Assembly: GCA_029225065.1 (NCBI GenBank)
Contig: JAQXVT010000050.1
Span: 3,359 to 67,358, forward strand
Reading direction: 5' to 3'
Length of the DNA: 64,000 nt
Origin: Lachnospiraceae bacterium
GTDB lineage: Bacteria > Bacillota > Clostridia > Lachnospirales > Lachnospiraceae
Below are positions 39,207 to 53,106 of this stretch, in pieces. The translations under genes and the position numbers were made by a program. The notes below the pieces were generated by a model, which saw only the letters and a program-made list of their open reading frames with translations, did no database searches and was not told the DNA's origin. Every line of letters begins with the position of its first letter. Position 1 is the stretch's first letter.

Positions 39207-39232
39207 CGGGGAAGCATAATTGTAAGAGAATA

Positions 39233-39565
39233 GTGAGTCACAGGCGGAGTGTATACATTCTCTCAGGCTTTGCGAAAATACTGCCCGGAAACAACGAGAA
39301 ATTCAGAAAGGAGCGCAGCGCAATTGTTACACCGTATTTTTATGTCGCGGAGGACAGCACACTTGCAAAGGTGTTGTTTGCAAGCAGGGATATCAACGAC
39401 TACAAGCAGCGGGAGGAGACATATAAGGAGCAGCTGAGAGAGACAGCGCTCTCCGAGGTAACGTCATTTATCGGGGAGCGGGCGTGTGAGAAGGAGATTC
39501 ATTTTTCGTATGATTTTTCTGCTATTGTGCACAGGCAAAGCCGATCAATATTGAGGAGCTGGTGA
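39233..39565 (+). pseudogene. Remnant of a hybrid histidine kinase
   Basis: Fragments resembling a PAS C-terminus/coiled coil (VLFASRDINDYKQREE) joined to a pre-HATPase helix (EKEIHFSYDFSAIVHR). No RBS and no catalytic motifs. Confidence 0.5.
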
Positions 39566-39809
39566 GGCTGATCGAGAGGTACTGCGGGAAGCGAGAGAAG
39601 TCACTGAATTAGTCAATAAGGAAAAGAATAGATTGTCAAATAATGGCTGCCGCCGTATGGAAGGGATTCTGTACGGCGTTTTTTGTATACGCCTTGTTTT
39701 ATTCCGAAACGGAATAAAGAAACAGAAAATGGGAATTGTTTGGGAATTTGTGTACAGGTATACTGGAAATGAAAAGGTATGTACGGACAATAAAAATTGG
39801 GGGAACGAT

Positions 39810-41427
39810 ATGAAATACAGTGCGATTATCGCCGATGATGAGCCGAAGATTATTCTGCTCATCCGGCAGCTGGGGCATTTTGAGGAGCTTGGAATTGAGA
39901 TTGTTGATGAATGCCGAAATGGAAAAGAAGCGTATGAGAGCATCCTGAAGCATCATCCGGATTTTGTGCTTTCGGATATCAAGATGCCGGTCTATGATGG
40001 AATCGATCTGATCCGGCGTGTGCGGGAGGCGGAGCAGGACCCGCTTTTTGTGCTGCTGAGTGGATACCGCCATTTTGAGTATGCGAGGAGCGCAATTCAG
40101 CTGAATGTGATGGATTATCTGCTGAAACCGATTGATGAAAAACAGCTGAACGATACATTGCGGCGGGTCTGCAGCCGGATCGATCAGCGACGGGCACAAA
40201 AGGAGGATCGCCAGACGCTGACTGCACTTCGGGCAGATCAGGATGAAAAGGCGATCGGACGGTTCTGGCAGAAGCTGATCCACGACGATCCGTCGATTGA
40301 CGATGCGTATTTTGTATCGGAAGCGCGCTGTAATCAGGAATTTCATACCGCATTTCACGAGGGCTGGTGCTATGAGGTGCTCTACATTTTTTCAAATCTG
40401 AGTGCCGTATTTGGCGAAGAAAACCGGACCGGGGACGGAAGAGTCGACCAGTATATCCAGGAGAGCTTCGGTGGTCATGCGCTGATTTACACGCACAATA
40501 CGTTTATGGGCTACGTCATCGTGCTGCATTTCGAGGAGAAAGGAAAGGCGGAGGTGCGCAAAGGGATTCCGGCACTTTATTACAAGATCCGTGATCTGCA
40601 GGAAATTTACGGAGAGATTCATCTGAATATCGGCTGCAGCCGGATCAAACACAGTACGGCGCAGCTGCAGGAAGCGTTTCACGAGGGCCACAGTGCGGAG
40701 TGGGGGGCGGCTTGTGCTGGCGCGAAACGGGGTGCTGGATTACGACCAGATCTGTACGCTGCCCCGGTTTGAACGGGATGAGCTTGTCACGGAAAAGGAG
40801 CTGCAGCAGCTCATGGAATGCATCAAATACCTGCGCGCCGGCGAATTCGGTGATCTTTTTCAGCGTATTTACCAGCGCTCGGGCGCATTGAACCATTCGA
40901 ACCCGGAGGATATCATGTTTGGGTTCTTTTATCTGCGCTGTGGGCTGATGGAATGCTTTGAGGAGCACTCGCCGGTGTGGGAGCGGATGAATGTGGATAC
41001 ATATTACGCCTACTTAAATGCACGCAGCTTTCAGCAGGTGATCAAAAACATTTATCTCTCATATCAGAAATATATGCAGGAGGAGCAGAAACGGCTGAAA
41101 GAGAAAAAGGGAAAGCCGATTCTGCTGGCTGCCCGGTATGTAAAGGAGCATTACGCCGACCAGATCTCTCTGGAGGAGGTGGCGGAGGCCAGCAATGTTT
41201 CTCCTACCTACTTAAGCAAGCTGTTCAAAAATGAAATGCAGGTCGGATTCAACGATTATCTGACGCAGGTGCGGCTCGAGGAATCAGAAAAGCTGCTGGC
41301 AGAGACAAATCTTTCTGTCCGGGAAATCGCGGCGAAGGTCGGATATCTGGATGAAAAATATTACTCAAAGCTGTTCAAGAAAAGCACGGGAATCAAGCCG
41401 ACGGAGTACCGGAGAATCTACAGCTGA
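39810..41427 (+). pseudogene. AraC-family (YesN-like) response regulator split by a +1 frameshift in a G6 run
   Basis: Receiver domain (ADDE, SDIKMP, LLKP) in one frame and AraC HTH in another. Removing one G at 40702-40707 restores E-W-G-R-L-V-L. Confidence 0.8.
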
Positions 41428-41445
41428 CGGCGCAGGGGGAGAAGG

Positions 41446-42318
41446 ATGAGAATAACAGAATACGTGTTGCTCGCGCTTGTTGCAGTACTGTTCGGGTTGG
41501 TGATCTTTCTGTGCGTGCGGGTCCGCAGTCTGAAGCGGATGCTCCGTTTTCTTGCGCAGGAGGAAAAAAAGAAAAAGAGTGCGGAGAATGTGACTTGGAA
41601 TGAGGAGGAAATGCAGGAGCTTGGGCTTCTGCGCAAACGGATGGAGCTTTCCGTGTTGCAGGAGCAGATCAACCCGCATTTTCTTTACAATACACTGGAC
41701 AGTATCCGGAGCCGTGCGCTGATGGATGACCAGCTGGAGATTGCGAAGATGACGGAGATTCTGTCGCGTTTTTTTCGGTACTGCATCAGCAGGCAGGAAA
41801 ATCTGGTGAAGGTGCGCGAAGAACTGGAACATATCGAAGACTACTATTATATTCAAAAATATCGATTTGAGGATCGAATTGAGCTGGAAATTCATATGGA
41901 ATCGGAGGAACTGTACGACCTGTATCTTCCGAAGATGACACTTCAGCCATTAGTGGAGAATGCGATGATCCACGGCCTGGAAAAGCGGGCCGAGAATGGA
42001 AAGATTGATATCCATCTGTTTCGGGCAGATGAACGGCTGGTGATTCTGATTTCAGACAACGGAGTCGGAATGGACCGCAGACATCTGGATCAGCTGAATG
42101 CGCGGATGCAGGAGCCGTATTTCGACGCGGACCGGAAGCATGGAAGACACAGCGGCATTGCACTGAACAACGTAAATGCGCGGCTGAAGATGACATTCGG
42201 GGAGGACAGTGGTATCCACTATCGCTCGATGGAGGGCGAGGGAACCGATGCGGTTGTGATGCTGCCGGTGGTTGATGTATTTTCCAGAGTGGCATATGAG
42301 GAGAAATCGGAGCTGTGA
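41446..42318 (+). CDS. YesM-type histidine kinase with a single TM helix and no sensor domain
   Basis: QINPHFLYNTL H-box, LQPLVENA and DNGVGM. Confidence 0.92.
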   Translation: MRITEYVLLALVAVLFGLVIFLCVRVRSLKRMLRFLAQEEKKKKSAENVTWNEEEMQELGLLRKRMELSVLQEQINPHFLYNTLDSIRSRALMDDQLEIAKMTEILSRFFRYCISRQENLVKVREELEHIEDYYYIQKYRFEDRIELEIHMESEELYDLYLPKMTLQPLVENAMIHGLEKRAENGKIDIHLFRADERLVILISDNGVGMDRRHLDQLNARMQEPYFDADRKHGRHSGIALNNVNARLKMTFGEDSGIHYRSMEGEGTDAVVMLPVVDVFSRVAYEEKSEL

Positions 42319-42469
42319 TGGGATATGGAAGTGTGCACAGGCGAGATAGAAAGTATTATTTTTAAGTGACCCCGGATGGAACAGCTGAAAGCCAGACAGA
42401 GCTCGTAAAACAGAAAAGACGTCTGTACCATGAGAGCGGACAGGACAGAATGACGGAGAAACAGCAGAT

Positions 42470-43861
42470 ATGAAAGAATTACTTCGGATCACGCACGGCA
42501 TGCAGGATCAGGCCGGGGAGGATGCGCTTTACGATTACAATTTGGAGGTATACGAGGGAGAAATCCTCTACATTCAGGGAATGCCGGGAAACGGAATACG
42601 GACTCTGATGAATATTTTTGCCGGGGACTGTGCGTTAAAAAGTGGTAAACTGCTCTTAAACGGAAAGGAAGTATCCGGCTACAATCGAGACGGGGCGTTT
42701 CTGCACGGTATCTACACAATCACAGCGGAGCGCGACCTTGTGGAGACACTGACCGTTGCGGAGAATCTGGAAGCGATCCGGTATCTGCCATTTTCCGGAA
42801 GTCTGTACAGCAGGAAACGCTCAACCAGACGGGTAAAGAAATATCTGGAGCAGGAGGGTGTGCACATCAGCGCGGAGGATTACGTCTGGACGATTGGCAG
42901 TAAGGACCGGAAGCGTCTTAGCATTCTGAAGGCGAAAATGCACGGCGCACGTCTGATTATCCTCGACGCGATGAATGAGCTGTATGAGGGAAAAGAAGCA
43001 GAGGAGATCTGCAGCCTGATCCAAAAGGCGAACCGGGAGGGAATCACGTTTGTGATTCTGACGCAGCATTACAATATGCTGGCGGAGATCGCTGACCGCA
43101 TCCAGCTCGTATCGCGCGGAATTGATCTGAAGGAGTGGCGGGAACTGAGCGACCGGATACGAAATGTTCTGCGCGATCCGATGGGATACCAGCAGGAAAG
43201 TGGCAAACCGGGAAGTGGGGCCGGGCAGAAGTGTTTTAGCGGCTTTCTCGGATTGTACGATTATGAGTGGGAGACGGAGCGGGAATTTCGCAATTATCTG
43301 GTGCTTCTGAGGCGGGAAAACGAGGCGCTGTGGAATGCGGAAATCTGGGCGGAGCTGCCGGAAAAAGGATTCGTCGCCGGTCGCGGCACGGTCCTGATTC
43401 AGCAGGACAGCGCGGAGAAGCTCCTTATGAATTTAAGCATCGCAGACAATTTAATTCTGCCGATTCCGCGCCGTGTCAGCCGCAGCTGCATCGGTTTGAT
43501 TCCGAAACATATCGAGAAGAATATCGCGGACCGGTTTTATACAGTGACGGGAGTAGATGCGGCAAAAACGGAAATCTGTGAGCTGGACCGCGTGGAGCGT
43601 AAGATTCTGTCCATCTACCGCTGGGCTGCGAGTCATCCCAAGGTGATGATTCTGGAGCGTCCATACAGCGGTTTTCACCCGGAGGAAGTGCAGCGTATCC
43701 GGAATTTTCTTCAGGATCTGGAACAGAAAGGAATCCGGATCATTTACTTTTCAAAGGCATTTGATGAGATGCAGCTGGACTGTGAGAAGATTCTGATCTC
43801 GCATAATGGCAGGAGTGCAAAAATGACCACCCCGATCACATTTTTTTCCACTCCCGAATGA
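42470..43861 (+). CDS. Degenerate two-NBD sugar-ABC ATPase-like protein (predicted inactive)
   Basis: RbsA-like layout, but Walker A reads GMPGNGIRT, Walker B reads LIILDA and MILERP, and there is no LSGG signature. Confidence 0.75.
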   Translation: MKELLRITHGMQDQAGEDALYDYNLEVYEGEILYIQGMPGNGIRTLMNIFAGDCALKSGKLLLNGKEVSGYNRDGAFLHGIYTITAERDLVETLTVAENLEAIRYLPFSGSLYSRKRSTRRVKKYLEQEGVHISAEDYVWTIGSKDRKRLSILKAKMHGARLIILDAMNELYEGKEAEEICSLIQKANREGITFVILTQHYNMLAEIADRIQLVSRGIDLKEWRELSDRIRNVLRDPMGYQQESGKPGSGAGQKCFSGFLGLYDYEWETEREFRNYLVLLRRENEALWNAEIWAELPEKGFVAGRGTVLIQQDSAEKLLMNLSIADNLILPIPRRVSRSCIGLIPKHIEKNIADRFYTVTGVDAAKTEICELDRVERKILSIYRWAASHPKVMILERPYSGFHPEEVQRIRNFLQDLEQKGIRIIYFSKAFDEMQLDCEKILISHNGRSAKMTTPITFFSTPE

Positions 43862-43928
43862 AGCAGGGCACTGCTATACTAAAGACATCAGAAAGGCACG
43901 GAAGGTGCCAAGAACGGGAGGAAACAAA

Positions 43929-44981
43929 ATGAAAAAGAGATTGATGGCAGTACTTATGGCAGGCTGTATGGCACTTGGATGCCTGGGCAGCGCAGCAGGC
44001 GTAATGGCAGCAGAGGATGAGACGACGGCAGAGGCTGTGACTGAGGCGGTTGCAGAGGAGGCAGAAAAACAGGGCGAAGACCTGACCGGTAAGAAGGTAG
44101 GTTTTTCCGCACTGATGATGTCTTCCGAGTTCTTTACCGATATGTCCAACCAGATGGAGGATTACTTCACTGGATACGGAATGGAGTATGAGGTAGCCGA
44201 TGCGGCAGGAAACGCACAGACGCAGATCCAGACCGTAGAGAACTTCGTTTCCATGGGAATGGATTACATCATCTGTTTCGTTGTAGATGCTTCTTCCATC
44301 AGCGACGCGCTGATCAAGGCAAGAGAGCAGGGCGCATACATTATCGTCATCGGAACGGTACTGGACAACCCGGATGCATACGATGTCTGCATCAACATCA
44401 GCCAGAATGAGTCCGGCTGTGTGGAAGCACAGATGGCGGCAGACTGGATCGATGCGACGTTCCCGGATGCAGAGGACGGATCGGTCAAAGTCGGACTTCT
44501 GACTAACTCCGAAAATGAGGATGCCGTATCCAGATGCGACGGACTTCGCGAGATCGTAAATTATACATCGAAGGCAACGATCGTGGAGGAGCACGAGACG
44601 GTACAGGCTGACGGCTCCGCAGTTCCGCAGAGCTATGCAGAGATGATGCTGATGAACAATCCGGATCTGAACGTGATTCTTACCTATGGAACCGATCAGG
44701 GCCAGGGCGCAAACGAGGCAGTCATGAAAGACACCAACGTAAACAAAGACGAGTTCGCAGTCTTCACGATTGATACCGCAGAGTTTATCCGTGAGAAGGT
44801 AAAGGCTTCTGTTACGAATGATTCCGTAATCCGTGGTACGGTAATGCTTGGTGAAGGTACACCGATGACCTGCTACAAGCTGATGGACGGCACATGGGCA
44901 GACCGTATCGTAGACAAGGTTTACTCTGAGCGCTGCATCGAGATCACACCGGATACCATTGGTGAGTATTTCCCGGAATAA
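43929..44981 (+). CDS. Monosaccharide ABC substrate-binding protein (RbsB-like)
   Basis: ADAAGNAQTQIQTVENF, GAYIIVIG. Start moved to MKKRL. Confidence 0.88.
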   Translation: MKKRLMAVLMAGCMALGCLGSAAGVMAAEDETTAEAVTEAVAEEAEKQGEDLTGKKVGFSALMMSSEFFTDMSNQMEDYFTGYGMEYEVADAAGNAQTQIQTVENFVSMGMDYIICFVVDASSISDALIKAREQGAYIIVIGTVLDNPDAYDVCINISQNESGCVEAQMAADWIDATFPDAEDGSVKVGLLTNSENEDAVSRCDGLREIVNYTSKATIVEEHETVQADGSAVPQSYAEMMLMNNPDLNVILTYGTDQGQGANEAVMKDTNVNKDEFAVFTIDTAEFIREKVKASVTNDSVIRGTVMLGEGTPMTCYKLMDGTWADRIVDKVYSERCIEITPDTIGEYFPE

Positions 44982-44997
44982 GAGAAAGCAGATGATG

Positions 44998-45046
44998 GAC
45001 TGCTGCATGGCGGTGGAGTCAGAGCCGCTTTGCAGCAGTCCTTTTA
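44998..45046 (+). terminator. Intercistronic hairpin after the SBP gene
   Basis: GGACTGCTGCA / TGCAGCAGTCC followed by TTTT. Confidence 0.7.
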
Positions 45047-45068
45047 CGAAGCGTAAAGGGGTATCAAT

Positions 45069-46559
45069 ATGGCAAAGGTATTGGAAGTAAAAAACATCAC
45101 CAAGACATATCCCGGTGTTGTCGCGCTGGATCACGTTTCATTTGATGTGGAAAAGGGAGAGATCCTTGCACTGATCGGGGAAAACGGGGCTGGAAAATCC
45201 ACAGTGATCAAGTCAATTTCAGGAGCGATCACGCCGGATTCCGGATCGATTGTGATCGATGGAAAGGAATATGAAAAGCTGACCCCAATGCAGGCAAAGG
45301 AAGCCGGAATCGGGGTTGTTTATCAGGAACTGAATCTCGTGCCGTCGCTTAGCATCATGGAAAATATTTTCCTCGGCGACCGGGTCGGCAAAGCACGGTT
45401 TCTGCCGGATTTCAAGATAATGCGCAAAAAGGCACAGGAAATCATGAACGACCTCGGCGTAAAGATCGATGTATCGACGCAGGTGCAGATGCTCTCTACC
45501 GCGCAGATGCAGATCGTGGAGATCGCAAAAGCGGTTGTAAAAAACTGCAAGGTGCTGATCATGGACGAGCCGTCCGCGTCAATTCCGATGGCGGAGGTGG
45601 AGAACATGTTCCGCATCGTGCGCAGACTGAAGGAAAAAGGCGTGTCGGTCATCTACATCAGCCACCGTCTGGAGGAGCTCTTTGAGTTGTGCGACCGCGT
45701 GACCGTTTTCCGGGACGGAAAATTTGTCGTGACAAGAAACGTAAAGGACATTACCAAGAAGGAACTCATCCGATATATGATCGGCCGTGAGCTGACCGAG
45801 AAATTCCCGGAGCGAAATGTGAAGATCGGCGAACCGGTGCTGCAGGTAAAGGACCTGACCGGAAATGGTGATTTCCACATTAATTTGGAACTGCACAAGG
45901 GAGAAATTCTTGGACTGGCCGGACTGGTCGGAGCAGGCCGCACGGAGCTTGCAAAGATGCTCTGCGGCGATGTGAAGCCGGACAGCGGTGAAATTATCGT
46001 AAAAGGAAAGCCGATGAGAGCTGCATCCGCAGCGGACGGCGTAGAGGCTGGTATCGGTCTGGTGCCGGAGGACCGAAAGCTGGAGGGTGTGTTCCTGGAG
46101 TATACAATCGAGTGGAACATTCCGATTATGAGCATGAAGCGGATCAGCCACATGGGTGTCGTGGACTTTAAGAAGGCGGATCAGCTGACTGATACATATG
46201 TAAAACAGCTTGGCATCAAAACGCCGACCGTAAAGCAGCTGGTCAAGAACCTCTCCGGAGGCAATCAGCAGAAGGTTGTCGTGGCAAAGGTGCTTGCGGC
46301 GGACAACGATATCCTGATCTTCGATGAGCCGACGAGGGGTATCGATGTCGGAGCAAAGCAGGAGATATACAAGCTGATGAATCAGCTGGTCGAGGAGGGC
46401 CGTTCGATTCTGATGATCTCCTCAGAGATGGAGGAGCTGCTTGGAATGAGCGACCGGATACTGGTGCTTCACGAGGGCAAATTAAGCGGAGAACTGTCGA
46501 AAAACGAGTTCAGCCAGGATCACGTCCTGGAACTGGCTTCCGGAATGGTGGAGGAATAA
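45069..46559 (+). CDS. Monosaccharide ABC ATPase (RbsA/MglA type)
   Basis: GENGAGKS, VYQELNL, VPEDRK, LSGGNQQK, DEPTRGIDVGAK. Confidence 0.96.
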   Translation: MAKVLEVKNITKTYPGVVALDHVSFDVEKGEILALIGENGAGKSTVIKSISGAITPDSGSIVIDGKEYEKLTPMQAKEAGIGVVYQELNLVPSLSIMENIFLGDRVGKARFLPDFKIMRKKAQEIMNDLGVKIDVSTQVQMLSTAQMQIVEIAKAVVKNCKVLIMDEPSASIPMAEVENMFRIVRRLKEKGVSVIYISHRLEELFELCDRVTVFRDGKFVVTRNVKDITKKELIRYMIGRELTEKFPERNVKIGEPVLQVKDLTGNGDFHINLELHKGEILGLAGLVGAGRTELAKMLCGDVKPDSGEIIVKGKPMRAASAADGVEAGIGLVPEDRKLEGVFLEYTIEWNIPIMSMKRISHMGVVDFKKADQLTDTYVKQLGIKTPTVKQLVKNLSGGNQQKVVVAKVLAADNDILIFDEPTRGIDVGAKQEIYKLMNQLVEEGRSILMISSEMEELLGMSDRILVLHEGKLSGELSKNEFSQDHVLELASGMVEE

Positions 46560-46562
46560 GAT

Positions 46563-47546
46563 ATGTCAAAAGTAGTTGATTTTTGCAGAAGAAACCTGGC
46601 ATGGGTACTGCTGCTTCTGATCTGTATCGTATTTACATTTACGAGCAAAAACTTTCTTACAATCACGAACCTGTTAAACATTCTGAATCAGAATGCCTAT
46701 ATTATCATCTGTACCTATGGTATCGCGCTGATCATGATGTCCGGCGGACTGGATATGGCGGTCGGCTATCAGATGAGTATCTGCGGCGTTTTGTGTGCGC
46801 TGATGCTGACTCGCACCGGACTTCCGATTCCGGTAATCGTGGTGATTACCATCGCAATCAGCGTTCTGTTCGGAGCCCTTGGCACACTGCTTGAGCAGCT
46901 GCTTCAGCTGCCGCGTATCTTCGTTTCCATCGGACTGAGCACGGTATATCAGGGTGTGGCATACGTAATCACAAACTCCAAAACGATTTCTGGTCTGCCG
47001 GATGTGTTTAAAGCAATCGGCCAGGGCACAATCTTTCATCCGAGCCTGACCTATGCGACGATCCTCATGATCATCGGCGGCATCGTGATGAGCTTTATCA
47101 TGGACCGCACATACTTCGGACGTTACGTCTTTGCACTTGGCGGAAATGAATCTGCGGCCAGACTTGCCGGTATCAACGTAAAGCGCATAAAATATGCGAT
47201 CGGCTGTGTGGCAGGATTCTTTTGCGGCATCGGTGCAATTATCCTGACTTCCCGTGTCGGAGCAGCTGCGGCAGGTACCGCAGCCGGAACTGAAATCACG
47301 ATCATGACCGGCGTTCTGGTCGGCGGCGTATCCGTCCGCGGCGGTGACGGCAAGATCGCAAACTGTATCGCCGGTGTCCTGATCATGGGACTTCTAGCAA
47401 ACGGCATGCAGCTGGCAGGCCTGAACACGTACTATCAGTATATCGCAAAGGGCGCAATCATGCTGCTTGTGATGTGGTTCGACGCATTCCAGATCAAGCG
47501 CAGAGCGATCGCTGCAAATAAGAGAAAAGAGGAGCACGCGGCGTAA
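46563..47546 (+). CDS. Monosaccharide ABC permease (RbsC type)
   Basis: TYFGRYVFALGGNESAARLAGI, VGGVSVRGG. Confidence 0.94.
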   Translation: MSKVVDFCRRNLAWVLLLLICIVFTFTSKNFLTITNLLNILNQNAYIIICTYGIALIMMSGGLDMAVGYQMSICGVLCALMLTRTGLPIPVIVVITIAISVLFGALGTLLEQLLQLPRIFVSIGLSTVYQGVAYVITNSKTISGLPDVFKAIGQGTIFHPSLTYATILMIIGGIVMSFIMDRTYFGRYVFALGGNESAARLAGINVKRIKYAIGCVAGFFCGIGAIILTSRVGAAAAGTAAGTEITIMTGVLVGGVSVRGGDGKIANCIAGVLIMGLLANGMQLAGLNTYYQYIAKGAIMLLVMWFDAFQIKRRAIAANKRKEEHAA

Positions 47547-50057: not shown

Positions 50058-50879
50058 ATGAAAAGACGAAAAAGAAAATGGATGCTTTTAGTGTCAGCGT
50101 TCTGCGCCTTGGCTGTGCTGACGGGCTGTGGAGGGAAGCAGACAGCGGAAACGCGCGAAGCTGCGCTGCCGCAGATCGTAGTCGACAGTGACAATTATCC
50201 GCCTTACAATTTTGAGGATGCAAACGGCAGGCCGGCCGGGATCGATGTTGAGCTTGCAACGGAAGCCTTTAAGAGAATGGGCTATGAGGCTGTTTTTACC
50301 TATATTAACAGGGAAGATAAGAAAGAACTTGTAGAAAGCGGTGCGATCGACTGTATTTGGGGCAGCTTTTCGATCGATGGAAGAGAAAATGATTACAGCT
50401 GGACGAAGCCATACATGGTCAGTCGGCAGGTGGTGGCTGTGCGCGCGGACAGCACCATTTATACGCTGGCAGATCTGGAGGGGAAACGCGTGGCGGTACA
50501 GTCGACGACAAAGCCTGAGGTGCTCTTCAGCTCGCATACAGACAGCCGCATTCCGGTTCTGCAGGAGCTGTTTTCCCTGCAGAACCGGGAACTGATTTAT
50601 TCGTTTCTGAGCAAGGGCTATGCGGACGCGGTGGCTGCACATGAGACGGCGATTCTGAAATGTATGGAAGATTATGATCTGGAATACCGCATTCTTGCAG
50701 AGCCGCTGCTTACGGTCGGGCTTGGTGTGGCATTTGCAAAGGATGACGATCGCGGACTGAATGAGGAGCTGTCGCAGACATTTGAGGAGATGCGCAGTGA
50801 CGGCACGATGAAAAGGATCATCGGAAAATATCTGGAGCACCCGGAAAAATATCTGGAGGTAGAAAGCCTTGAAAAATAA
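50058..50879 (+). CDS. Family 3 amino-acid-binding lipoprotein without its own permease
   Basis: LTGC lipobox, YPPYNF, GIDVEL, YTLADLEGKRVAVQ. Confidence 0.9.
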   Translation: MKRRKRKWMLLVSAFCALAVLTGCGGKQTAETREAALPQIVVDSDNYPPYNFEDANGRPAGIDVELATEAFKRMGYEAVFTYINREDKKELVESGAIDCIWGSFSIDGRENDYSWTKPYMVSRQVVAVRADSTIYTLADLEGKRVAVQSTTKPEVLFSSHTDSRIPVLQELFSLQNRELIYSFLSKGYADAVAAHETAILKCMEDYDLEYRILAEPLLTVGLGVAFAKDDDRGLNEELSQTFEEMRSDGTMKRIIGKYLEHPEKYLEVESLEK

Positions 50880-53106
50880 GAAAAAAACGACCGGCAAACG
50901 GCTTCGGCTGTGGCCTCTGGAGGCGCTGCTTGGAATTTTTCTGATCGGAGGTGTCTTTCTGATTGCGACAAATGCGGATATGCGGGAGACGGAGCAGCGT
51001 CTCTGCGCGACGGTCAGCTACATAAAAGAACAGTGCAATCAGTACAACCGAATGAATCTTGCGTCAGAGACCAAAAGCCTGATGCGCATCATCGAGAGTG
51101 CGCACCAGATTGAACGGCAGCTTACGCCTGGGCAGGAACTGAAGGAATCATTGCCAATAGATGAAGAAGCGATGGAAGCCTGCGTAAGGAGCAGCTATGT
51201 GACAGGCGCGCTGCTGCTGGATCTGAATGGAAACGTGCAGGCGGAATACTGTGATAAATTTGAAAGGCCGGAGGAGCTGGAGGCGTATTTTGATACAGAG
51301 ACGCTGCTCGATACGGCAAAGGTTTCGGAGAAGTCCTATTCGGTGCGGATTGCATGTGCGGACGGCTCCTATGTAGATCTCGGCGCAGTGGGAAGAAGCG
51401 ATGGCTCCGGCGTGGTGGCAGCGTATTACCAGACATCAGCCGAATATGTGAATACATTCAGCCTTACGTTGGAGGCACTGCTGACCGGATACAGTCTGGA
51501 AGATGATGGAACGATTGTTGTGAGCAGCGGAAACGATATCGTTGCAAGCAACGACACCAGTCTGATCGGACAGAGTACAGATGACATCCCGATTCTGCGT
51601 CGGATCAAGGCGGAGGCGAACAGCGATCGTCTTGTGCATGCAAAAAGAAATGCGAATTCACAGGCACAGAATTTTGGCCTGATGGAGCACGGACGTGATT
51701 ATTACGTGTATGCCTTCATGCCGGAGCAGGCTGTATTTAATTCGACGTTTCAGAACGTATTCTATTCTCTGATTGTGTATCTGGTGCTGCTCGCAGTCAT
51801 CAACATAATACGCTGGCGGATGGCGGAGGGCTATCAGGAGAATCAGCTTGCGGCGCAGAAGATGTATGCGGAAAATCTGCGCAGCAAAAATGAGCAGCTG
51901 CGTGAAGCGGTAGATCAGGCAGACCGCGCCAATGCGGCGAAGACAAGCTTTCTTTCGCGGATGAGCCACGATATCCGCACTCCGCTCAACGGAATCATCG
52001 GACTTCTGGAGATCGATGAGGCGCATCCGGATGATCTTGCACTGATCCGGGCAAACCAGAAAAAAATGAAAATTGCAGCGAACCATCTGCTCTCGCTGAT
52101 CAACGATATTCTGCAGATGAGCAAGCTGGAGAGCGGCAGGGTGGAGCTTACCGAGGAGCCGATGGATCTGCAGGAGCTTTCAGCGGGAATCCTTGCCATC
52201 ATTGAGCAGCGGGCCGCTGAGGCCGGTATCACGCTGGAATACGACAAAAATTCTGGACGAATCGCATATAGCAATGTCTATGGAAGTCCGCTGTATTTTC
52301 GCCAGATTTTTCTGAATATTTACAGCAACTGCATTAAGTACAACAAGGTCGGCGGAAAGGTGGAGACGTCGTGCACCTGCCTTGGAATCAAGGATGGAGT
52401 CGTGACGTATCGCTGGAGTATCCGAGATACGGGAATTGGCATGAAGCCGGAGTTTGTGAAACATATTTTTGATCCGTTTGCACAGGAACGCTCTGACGCA
52501 CGCAGCGTCTACAATGGAACGGGTCTTGGCATGGCGATCGTCAAAAACCTGATCGACAAAATGAACGGTACGATTGAAGTGACGAGTGAGGAAAATGTCG
52601 GCTCAATTTTTGTGATCACGCTTCCGCTGCGGCTGGTGGAAGAGGCAAACCTTCCGGTGAAAGAGCCCCGTGAGCAGACGAAGGAAGCGGAGGAATCCGG
52701 CGAGATCGGCGGACTGCATCTGCTGCTTGCGGAGGACAACGATCTGAACGCGGAGATTGCGGAGACGCTGCTCACCGACAGAGGCGCTGTGATTACGATT
52801 GCTCATGACGGACAGCAGGCGCTCGATGCATTTGAGGCGAACCCGCCGGGAACGTTTGACGCAATTCTTATGGATGTGATGATGCCGGTCATCGACGGCT
52901 TATCGGCGACGCGCATGATCCGTGCGCTGCCGCGTGAGGATGCAAAGAAGATTCCGATCATCGCAATGACGGCCAATGCATTTGACGAGGACGTAAAGCG
53001 ATGCATGGAAGCCGGAATGGACGCGCATTTATCCAAGCCGCTTCAGATGGAGCAGGTGGGCAGGACGATCGCAAAATACTGCCGAAACAGGGGAGAGCGG
53101 ACATAA
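50869..53106 (+). CDS. Hybrid sensor histidine kinase / response regulator
   Basis: Two TM helices, FLSRMSHDIRTPLNG, DTGIGM, GTGLGMAI, receiver AED..MDVMMP..KP. Confidence 0.95.
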   Translation: MKNKKKTTGKRLRLWPLEALLGIFLIGGVFLIATNADMRETEQRLCATVSYIKEQCNQYNRMNLASETKSLMRIIESAHQIERQLTPGQELKESLPIDEEAMEACVRSSYVTGALLLDLNGNVQAEYCDKFERPEELEAYFDTETLLDTAKVSEKSYSVRIACADGSYVDLGAVGRSDGSGVVAAYYQTSAEYVNTFSLTLEALLTGYSLEDDGTIVVSSGNDIVASNDTSLIGQSTDDIPILRRIKAEANSDRLVHAKRNANSQAQNFGLMEHGRDYYVYAFMPEQAVFNSTFQNVFYSLIVYLVLLAVINIIRWRMAEGYQENQLAAQKMYAENLRSKNEQLREAVDQADRANAAKTSFLSRMSHDIRTPLNGIIGLLEIDEAHPDDLALIRANQKKMKIAANHLLSLINDILQMSKLESGRVELTEEPMDLQELSAGILAIIEQRAAEAGITLEYDKNSGRIAYSNVYGSPLYFRQIFLNIYSNCIKYNKVGGKVETSCTCLGIKDGVVTYRWSIRDTGIGMKPEFVKHIFDPFAQERSDARSVYNGTGLGMAIVKNLIDKMNGTIEVTSEENVGSIFVITLPLRLVEEANLPVKEPREQTKEAEESGEIGGLHLLLAEDNDLNAEIAETLLTDRGAVITIAHDGQQALDAFEANPPGTFDAILMDVMMPVIDGLSATRMIRALPREDAKKIPIIAMTANAFDEDVKRCMEAGMDAHLSKPLQMEQVGRTIAKYCRNRGERT

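Follow-up and report, generated by a model that had tools for sequence, protein, structure and literature searches.

How does a histidine kinase without a sensor domain receive its signal, and why does the gene behind it encode a homologue of an ATP-binding cassette (ABC) ATPase in which the catalytic motifs are missing? Both questions are raised by a six-gene cassette in a 64,000-nucleotide stretch of the genome of a gut Lachnospiraceae bacterium (GenBank assembly GCA_029225065.1, contig JAQXVT010000050.1, positions 3,359 to 67,358 of the forward strand), referred to below as the window. The six genes, all on the plus strand and spanning window positions 39810–47546, encode a YesN-type response regulator, a short YesM-type kinase, the ATPase homologue (here called the pseudo-ATPase), a substrate-binding lipoprotein, and a canonical ATPase and permease of the CUT2 type. 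We consider it probable that the pseudo-ATPase descends from a CUT2 ABC ATPase, has lost catalysis but kept a function, and serves the sensor-less YesM-type kinase encoded directly upstream as its input module.

A two-domain ABC protein without catalytic motifs

The pseudo-ATPase has the fused ABC fold with two nucleotide-binding domains (NBDs) that is typical of CUT2 ATPases, and two stretches of it match the AraG, YtfR and RbsA models. It lacks the Walker A, Walker B and signature motifs of these proteins, and its best NCBIfam score, 110 bits to AraG, compares with a curated cut-off of 689. The motif losses extend over both halves: in NBD1, Walker A reads GMPGNGIRT, with the Lys lost, and Walker B reads LIILDAM, with the Glu lost; in NBD2, a YDYEWE motif stands at the place of Walker A and Walker B reads ILERP. 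The Q-loop Gln is substituted, and motif alignments revealed a signature motif in neither half. The canonical ATPase of the same cassette has its motifs in place (GENGAGKS, GLVGAGRT, two DEP and LSGGNQQ), and scores 536 bits to the AraG model and 527 to RbsA.

An earlier interpretation of this DNA, made without database searches (the sequence-only reading), had singled out an RbsA-like two-NBD gene without the Walker A Lys, the NBD1 Glu and both signatures, a canonical ATPase encoded two genes further on, and a kinase with one transmembrane helix and no extracellular or HAMP domain. The alignments bear out the first two observations in full, and Pfam, hydropathy and AlphaFold2 (AF2) agree on the third. 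The AF2 model of the pseudo-ATPase (pLDDT 82, pTM 0.69) has its best PDB fold matches in the fused two-NBD importer subunits DppD and OppD (M. tuberculosis), with query TM-scores (TMq) of up to 0.71; the BceABS complex structures 8g4c and 8g4d are also among the matches.

Selection was estimated against locus L017, a relative with 89% identity that served as the reference for pairwise alignments and dN/dS. The pseudo-ATPase has a dN/dS of 0.107, compared with 0.017 for the binding lipoprotein and 0.016 for the canonical ATPase, and its evolutionary rate is ~5–7 times that of the real ATPase; the sequence-only reading had called for a value below 1 if the degenerate gene is to be a working one. 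The faster rate and the loss of every catalytic motif would be expected of an ATPase duplicate that is decaying without function. We regard such decay as hardly tenable, as the dN/dS is low, the frame is intact in all relatives from 89% down to ~24% identity, the family has specific conserved motifs of its own, and synteny is kept across families of the order. On the basis of the dN/dS and the kept frame and length, the pseudogene reading was rejected.

The protein belongs to a well-delimited family. Sequence searches returned ~70 clusters of pseudo-ATPases, ranging from 100% to 30% identity and all 440–480 residues long, beyond which the score drops sharply to ordinary ATPases; the hosts, among them Kineothrix alysoides and Blautia schinkii, belong to the Lachnospiraceae and to further groups of Clostridia. 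With a profile searched against 1.8 billion representatives, the family grew to ~110 clusters at 50% identity, and a scan of these for the Walker B DEP and the signature motif found neither in any cluster, with Walker A GK[ST] retained by a minority. Members down to ~24–30% identity keep the length and the family's own motifs: IYTITAE, VAENLEA, LSILKAKMHGA, YDYEWE and RKILSIYRW. The profile matched 5 of 401 genomes, which represent ~400 genera of the bacterial family to which the window belongs. Because the motif loss is family-wide, and given the dN/dS and the AF2 fold, the pseudo-ATPase is a selected, folded, non-catalytic ABC protein. Such genes are annotated as "ATP-binding cassette domain-containing protein", a label that hides their role.

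A conserved genomic partner of sensor-less kinases

The regulatory genes of the cassette have the domains of YesM/YesN systems, PF06580 and HATPase_c in the kinase and a receiver (REC) domain with an AraC-type helix-turn-helix (HTH) in the regulator. A typical YesM kinase has ~570–620 residues, two membrane helices around an extracellular domain, and a HAMP domain, a layout that the window's kinase does not share; the long YesM-type kinases of the same genome have 478–635 residues. Hydropathy places a single hydrophobic helix at residues 6–24 of the window's kinase and the H-box His (QINPHF) is residue 78, Pfam detected no HAMP and no domain besides PF06580 His_kinase and HATPase_c, and the AF2 model (pLDDT 82) consists of a long N-terminal helix (residues 2–47), which takes in a helical linker behind the membrane segment, followed by the dimerization/phosphotransfer (DHp) and catalytic (CA) domains, with no additional domain. 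The kinase gene has a dN/dS of 0.049. Among kinases partnered by a pseudo-ATPase, the number of membrane helices varies: some have a single one, others two with a minimal loop, and L023 (284 residues) and L026 (260 residues) have none, so that the input of these two must come from a cytoplasmic partner.

The pairing of the two genes is strict. The order regulator, short kinase, pseudo-ATPase is kept in every locus read, including four relatives from the 401-genome scan (kinases of 299–332 residues) and eight metagenomic or isolate loci, one of them with a distant member that scores only 270 bits to the profile. The only interruption occurs in L016, where two transporter genes lie between kinase and pseudo-ATPase, and a 4-nucleotide overlap joins the kinase gene to the pseudo-ATPase gene in 8 of 19 loci. 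Within the window's genome (G000), 2 of the 15 YesM kinases are short and 2 of the 13 CUT2-type ATPase genes are degenerate, and each short kinase adjoins a degenerate ATPase. The second of these systems, on the minus strand of contig C31 (14693–22726), is much more diverged and has the order canonical ATPase, permease, binding protein, regulator (529 residues), kinase (350 residues, two membrane helices) and pseudo-ATPase (488 residues, without Walker A, Walker B and signature); its relatives are found in other families of the order (L029, L031 and L033).

A first scan for PF06580 kinases covered five genomes, and a second one 61 genomes of the order. A pseudo-ATPase follows 12 of 15 kinases shorter than 430 residues and none of 28 long kinases, 13 of which come from the window's genome and 15 from control loci (Fisher p = 3e-8); at 360 residues or less, the pairing is complete (11/11). 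Three of the short-kinase loci belong to other families of the order. The stricter statement that all kinases below 430 residues have such a partner was rejected, since three of 396–426 residues are without a pseudo-ATPase; these bear only a distant resemblance to the kinase of the window, and two occur with other regulator types. The sequence-only reading had raised the question whether degenerate RbsA homologues consistently adjoin short YesM kinases, and they do so in every locus read, never standing beside long ones.

Kinase and pseudo-ATPase are also co-inherited. When the catalytic cores of the kinases are arranged in a tree, the 13 short kinases cluster away from the long ones encoded in the window's genome. 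A second tree, built from 13 pseudo-ATPases and 20 canonical CUT2 ATPases, places the two sorts of ATPase on opposite sides of a branch with 99% support. Three sub-clades are common to both trees: window/Kineothrix/B. schinkii/L020/L013, L015/L016, and L025/L027. The real ATPases encoded in these cassettes cluster tightly in a clade of their own, where branches are much shorter. As judged from the trees, this pattern argues that the pseudo-ATPase is an old lineage co-evolving with its kinase and not a recent copy of its neighbour. A recent duplication of the adjacent real ATPase was rejected, the pseudo-ATPases and their cognate real ATPases lying in separate deep clades.

The permease as a constant component

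A BPD_transp_2 permease gene is present in 16 of the 16 loci with enough context, including loci without a real ATPase and, in L026, without a binding protein. Few positions are universally conserved across pseudo-ATPase lineages, among them fold-skeleton positions and the Asn of a post-Q-loop "xxN[LI]" in each half. When conservation was compared in a sliding window of nine residues, the best agreement between pseudo-ATPases and real ATPases fell on the NBD1 post-Q-loop segment (LTVAENLEA and LSIMENIFL, respectively; cross score 2.24). The Walker A and signature windows lose conservation, the NBD1 Walker A scoring 5.16 within real ATPases and 1.08 within pseudo-ATPases. We take the post-Q-loop segment to correspond to the MalK A85 region, which makes the EAA-loop contacts and lines the groove for the permease coupling helix.

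These observations bear on whether the pseudo-ATPase could be a cytoplasmic sensor, one that binds an intracellular ligand (a nucleotide or the solute taken up) and acts on the kinase with no docking to the permease. In favour of this, Walker A GK[ST] is kept in some family members, the most conserved family motifs (YDYEWE and RKILSIYRW) occupy the former ATP site, and two partner kinases are fully soluble. However, the Walker A Lys is lost in the window's protein and in most close relatives, the permease gene persists throughout as described above, and the permease-facing motif is the best-conserved segment outside the core, which makes a sensor of this kind unlikely in our view.

Three of the loci lack part of the transporter: no real ATPase was found in L015, L016 and L026 within the ~15 kb read around each. 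In L015/L022 (genome G380) and L016/L021 (genome G061), which represent two genera, the order is TctC, TctB, TctA, binding protein, permease, regulator, kinase, pseudo-ATPase, with the tricarboxylate-type transporter TctC-TctB-TctA directly upstream of the ATPase-less module. The binding-protein gene of G061 is present as two open reading frames, and additional TctC and DctM genes lie between its kinase and pseudo-ATPase. L026 comprises regulator, kinase, pseudo-ATPase and permease only, and another two loci have gene clusters that end with the pseudo-ATPase.

The sequence-only reading had proposed that the degenerate protein is an adaptor through which the kinase senses transport flux. The first half of this proposal is supported, as the pairing and the dN/dS of 0.107 identify a conserved, selected partner of a sensor-less kinase; the second half is not. 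In flux or activity sensing, the pseudo-ATPase would monitor a working transporter and report to the kinase, as BceAB does for BceS, and two observations are in keeping with this: the window and most relatives encode a complete transporter with a real ATPase in the same cassette, and the separate clade of the cognate real ATPases indicates that the six genes have been inherited as a set. In L015, L016 and L026, however, there is no real ATPase nearby and the module therefore cannot report flux through its own transporter, and a fused two-NBD protein offers no free half-site for pairing with another fused ATPase. We thus consider flux sensing improbable. The ATPase-less loci, two of which adjoin TctCBA genes, point instead to receptor-type (occupancy) sensing, which we favour over flux sensing.

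The same loci weigh on the idea that the pseudo-ATPase is a transport brake, which would compete with the real ATPase for the permease and lower uptake, its place next to the kinase reflecting shared expression only. The retained fold and permease-facing motif would suit a competitor, as would the position of the gene in the regulatory half of the cassette. A brake would leave three things unexplained: the loss of the sensor domain from the partner kinase in every case, the absence of such a neighbour from all long kinases, and the persistence of the module where there is no real ATPase. We therefore judge it very unlikely.

A proposed receptor assembled from transporter parts

The occupancy-sensing mechanism that we favour is inferred from the features of the loci as regards the contacts between its proteins, the ligand, and the direction in which the signal would run. 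The pseudo-ATPase would dock beneath the CUT2 permease dimer in the manner of a real fused two-NBD ATPase, and would form, together with the permease and a ligand-loaded binding lipoprotein on the outside, a non-transporting receptor complex. The conformation of the permease would be relayed via the pseudo-NBD pair to the kinase, which would bind the pseudo-ATPase directly while being merely tethered to the membrane or, in some relatives, untethered. The kinase would then phosphorylate the REC-AraC regulator, and the transporter operon would be switched on. In the window, the real ATPase (for transport) and the pseudo-ATPase (for signalling) would both draw on the single permease and the single binding protein of the cassette.

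As a wider proposal, which we advance tentatively, Lachnospirales and related Clostridia may have turned ABC importers into pure receptors: a CUT2 permease with its binding protein and a pseudo-ATPase that needs no ATP would make up a transmembrane signalling device without transport, and this would drive a cytoplasmic or barely anchored kinase. Several points count against this proposal and the mechanism behind it. First, the cassette of the window has one permease gene plus a working ATPase, so that sharing of the permease is an assumption. Second, ABC importers normally need ATP-driven NBD closure to answer the binding protein, and the pseudo-NBDs are without ATP sites, while the family members that keep Walker A GK[ST] may bind nucleotide still. 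Third, a real ATPase for L015, L016 or L026 may be encoded elsewhere in the genome. Finally, the deepest node of the kinase tree is weakly supported, which makes a single short-kinase clade weak, and the single pseudo-ATPase clade may be inflated by long-branch attraction.

If the pure-receptor proposal is correct, the module can control unrelated transporters such as TctCBA, and represents a new class of bacterial receptor in which an NBD dimer serves as a nucleotide-free conformational relay. The loci would then illustrate a stepwise passage from transporter to receptor, with a full transporter plus pseudo-ATPase, a permease plus pseudo-ATPase only, and a soluble kinase as its stages, and the module would offer a compact ligand-sensing cassette for the engineering of anaerobes.

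Relation to known systems

Transporters are established co-sensors of sensor-less kinases, with BceAB-BceS and VirAB-VirS as examples (PMC7828314). As in the bacitracin system BceAB-BceRS of Bacillota (PMC7828314), the cassette has a kinase without an extracellular sensor that would be fed by a nearby ABC transporter, with the transporter operon as the target. BceS differs in sensing the activity of a functioning exporter, in which the BceA ATPases are active and the permease carries a large extracellular domain, whereas the partner in the cassette is a dedicated dead paralogue of a CUT2 importer ATPase, and some loci have no active ATPase. The kinases differ as well: BceS-like kinases have two helices with a short loop, a HisKA-type DHp domain and a Peptide-7-exporter permease as partner, whereas the partner kinases described here are of the PF06580 (YesM/LytS) type with 0–2 membrane helices, the one in the window having one helix, a PF06580 DHp domain and a BPD_transp_2 partner. 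In VirAB-VirRS-AnrAB of Listeria (PMC7828314), one ABC assembly senses for an intramembrane-type kinase and another transporter is the effector, an arrangement similar to that of the pseudo-ATPase loci adjoining TctCBA; VirAB is, however, an active BceAB-type transporter without a pseudo-ATPase.

A second group of related systems comprises XylFII-LytS-YesN for D-xylose in Clostridium beijerinckii and the CuaD-type systems of Ruminiclostridium, which likewise combine a PF06580 kinase with a REC-AraC regulator (PMC8050422, PMC10384115) and in which a CUT2-type ABC operon is likewise turned on by way of a Peripla_BP_4 binding protein. In XylFII-LytS, a second, dedicated binding protein touches the periplasmic four-helix-bundle domain of a full-length LytS (PMC8050422). 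The cassette of the window, in contrast, has a single Peripla_BP_4 gene and a kinase without a periplasmic domain, and its extra component is the cytoplasmic pseudo-ATPase.

In the phosphate system PstSCAB-PhoU-PhoR, a further established case of a transporter as co-sensor, and in MalK-MalT, the ATPase side of an ABC importer conveys the state of the transporter to a regulator without a periplasmic sensor. These systems use the active ATPase itself (PstB or MalK) together with an unrelated adaptor (PhoU) or a regulatory domain, whereas the cassette has a separate dead paralogue; unlike PhoR-PhoU-PstSCAB, no PhoU or PAS domain was found by Pfam in any cassette gene.

A full-text literature search, with most subscription journals outside its coverage, returned no paper on a dead ABC ATPase paired with a kinase. 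What appears to be new is that coupling falls to a dedicated, catalytically dead paralogue of the ATPase, and that there are loci whose transporter parts appear to be receptor-only. Sensor-less two-component kinases are common and their inputs are mostly unknown; for a large group among them, the YesM-type kinases with which gut and rumen Clostridia control operons for nutrient uptake, the module provides a concrete candidate input. The module would, in addition, be a clear bacterial example of an ABC ATPase fold that has been selected for signalling after the loss of catalysis, for which the sulfonylurea receptor (SUR) subunits of ATP-sensitive potassium (K-ATP) channels form a conceptual parallel.

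Substrate of the transporter

For the CUT2 transporter genes, every equivalog model scores far below its cut-off, and the binding lipoprotein resembles the sugar binders of NCBIfam and PDB only weakly (E ~1e-7); the label "sugar" derives from CUT2 family membership only. Related cassettes are repeatedly flanked by BD-FAE/Abhydrolase_3 or carboxyl-esterases and a metallo-beta-lactamase-fold hydrolase, and by UbiD, a flavoprotein and LpdD, an LpdBCD-type set resembling gallate/protocatechuate decarboxylases. Such decarboxylase, esterase or hydrolase links occur in L018, L019, L024, L013, L014, L020 and L023; esterase, metallo-beta-lactamase-fold and UbiD-type neighbours are absent at the window's own cassette. 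The neighbours of the relatives hint at a plant-phenolic rather than a simple sugar substrate, and on this genomic context a phenolic ester or acid would be as plausible a ligand as a monosaccharide. Given these neighbours and the weak binding-protein matches, the monosaccharide substrate assumed in the sequence-only reading is unproven.

Organization of the cassette in the window

The coordinates of the cassette features are collected in Table 1. The probable true start of the binding lipoprotein is the ATG at 43929 (MKKRLMAVLMAGC...), and CGGC-domain and DUF362 genes form the downstream border of the cassette.

Table 1. Features of the pseudo-ATPase cassette, in window coordinates
Feature	Position	Strand	Basis
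YesN-type response regulator (REC + AraC HTH)	39810..41427	+	Pfam Response_reg in first part, HTH_AraC/HTH_18 in second
YesM-type histidine kinase, sensor-less, 290 aa	41446..42318	+	Pfam PF06580 and PF02518 only
Insert, ~143 nt, species-specific	42307..42449	n/a	blastn and pairwise alignment to L017
Pseudo-ATPase, 463 aa, CUT2-type fused two-NBD fold	42470..43861	+	NCBIfam, motif alignments, AF2
Substrate-binding lipoprotein, Peripla_BP_4	43905..44981	+	Pfam
Canonical CUT2 ABC ATPase, 496 aa, two NBDs	45069..46559	+	NCBIfam and motifs
CUT2 permease (BPD_transp_2), 327 aa, sole permease gene of the cassette	46563..47546	+	Pfam and NCBIfam

The regulator gene, which the sequence-only reading did not describe, is split into two frames in this assembly by one extra G in a G-run at ~40697–40702, and without this base it encodes a protein of 538 residues. 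At the G-run, the alignment reads GAGTGGGGGGCGG in the window versus GAGT-GGGGACGC in L017. Logan contigs of five independent metagenome runs, covering four pig-gut studies plus one more run, are nearly identical to the window, and all are one base short at 40702; the two halves of the regulator have dN/dS values of 0.03 and 0.065 against L017. Because the extra G is absent from the metagenome contigs and both halves are under strong purifying selection, the regulator of the species is intact, and the frameshift is an assembly error or a private allele. The frameshift as the mark of a dead system was rejected, the extra G being absent from contigs of five other samples.

The insert between kinase and pseudo-ATPase is flanked by the direct repeat GGAGAAA and parts the kinase stop codon from the pseudo-ATPase start; in L017, where it is absent, the two genes overlap (ATGA). 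It is present in every metagenome contig aligned to the window and is single-copy in the genome, and with one occurrence only it was rejected as a repeated mobile element. One run labelled as metatranscriptomic yields short contigs that reproduce stretches of the regulator, kinase, junction, ATPase and permease without a mismatch; as a sign of transcription this is weak, since DNA may occur in such runs.

The window's genome contains contig pairs (C39/C71, C5/C6 and C28/C86) whose members share near-identical genes, and the positions of these genes are identical or similar on the two contigs; C39 and C71, for instance, both have a kinase at 410–2065. This suggests duplicated contigs or a strain mixture in the assembly.

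Upstream of the cassette, a strong terminator-like hairpin at 39651–39678 (a 12-bp stem followed by TTTTTTGT) lies ~130 nucleotides before the regulator start and is preceded by a promoter-like site at 39486–39514; the hairpin could be the end of an upstream transcript or a leader attenuator for the regulatory genes. The corresponding region of L017 (914–4506) contains an SBP_bac_3 gene and an 849-residue hybrid kinase directly upstream of the regulator, where the window has only ~460 nucleotides (39219–39680). A similar pair, SBP_bac_3 and a 745-residue hybrid kinase, lies downstream of the cassette in the window (50058–53106), and the differing position of the pair suggests a rearrangement.

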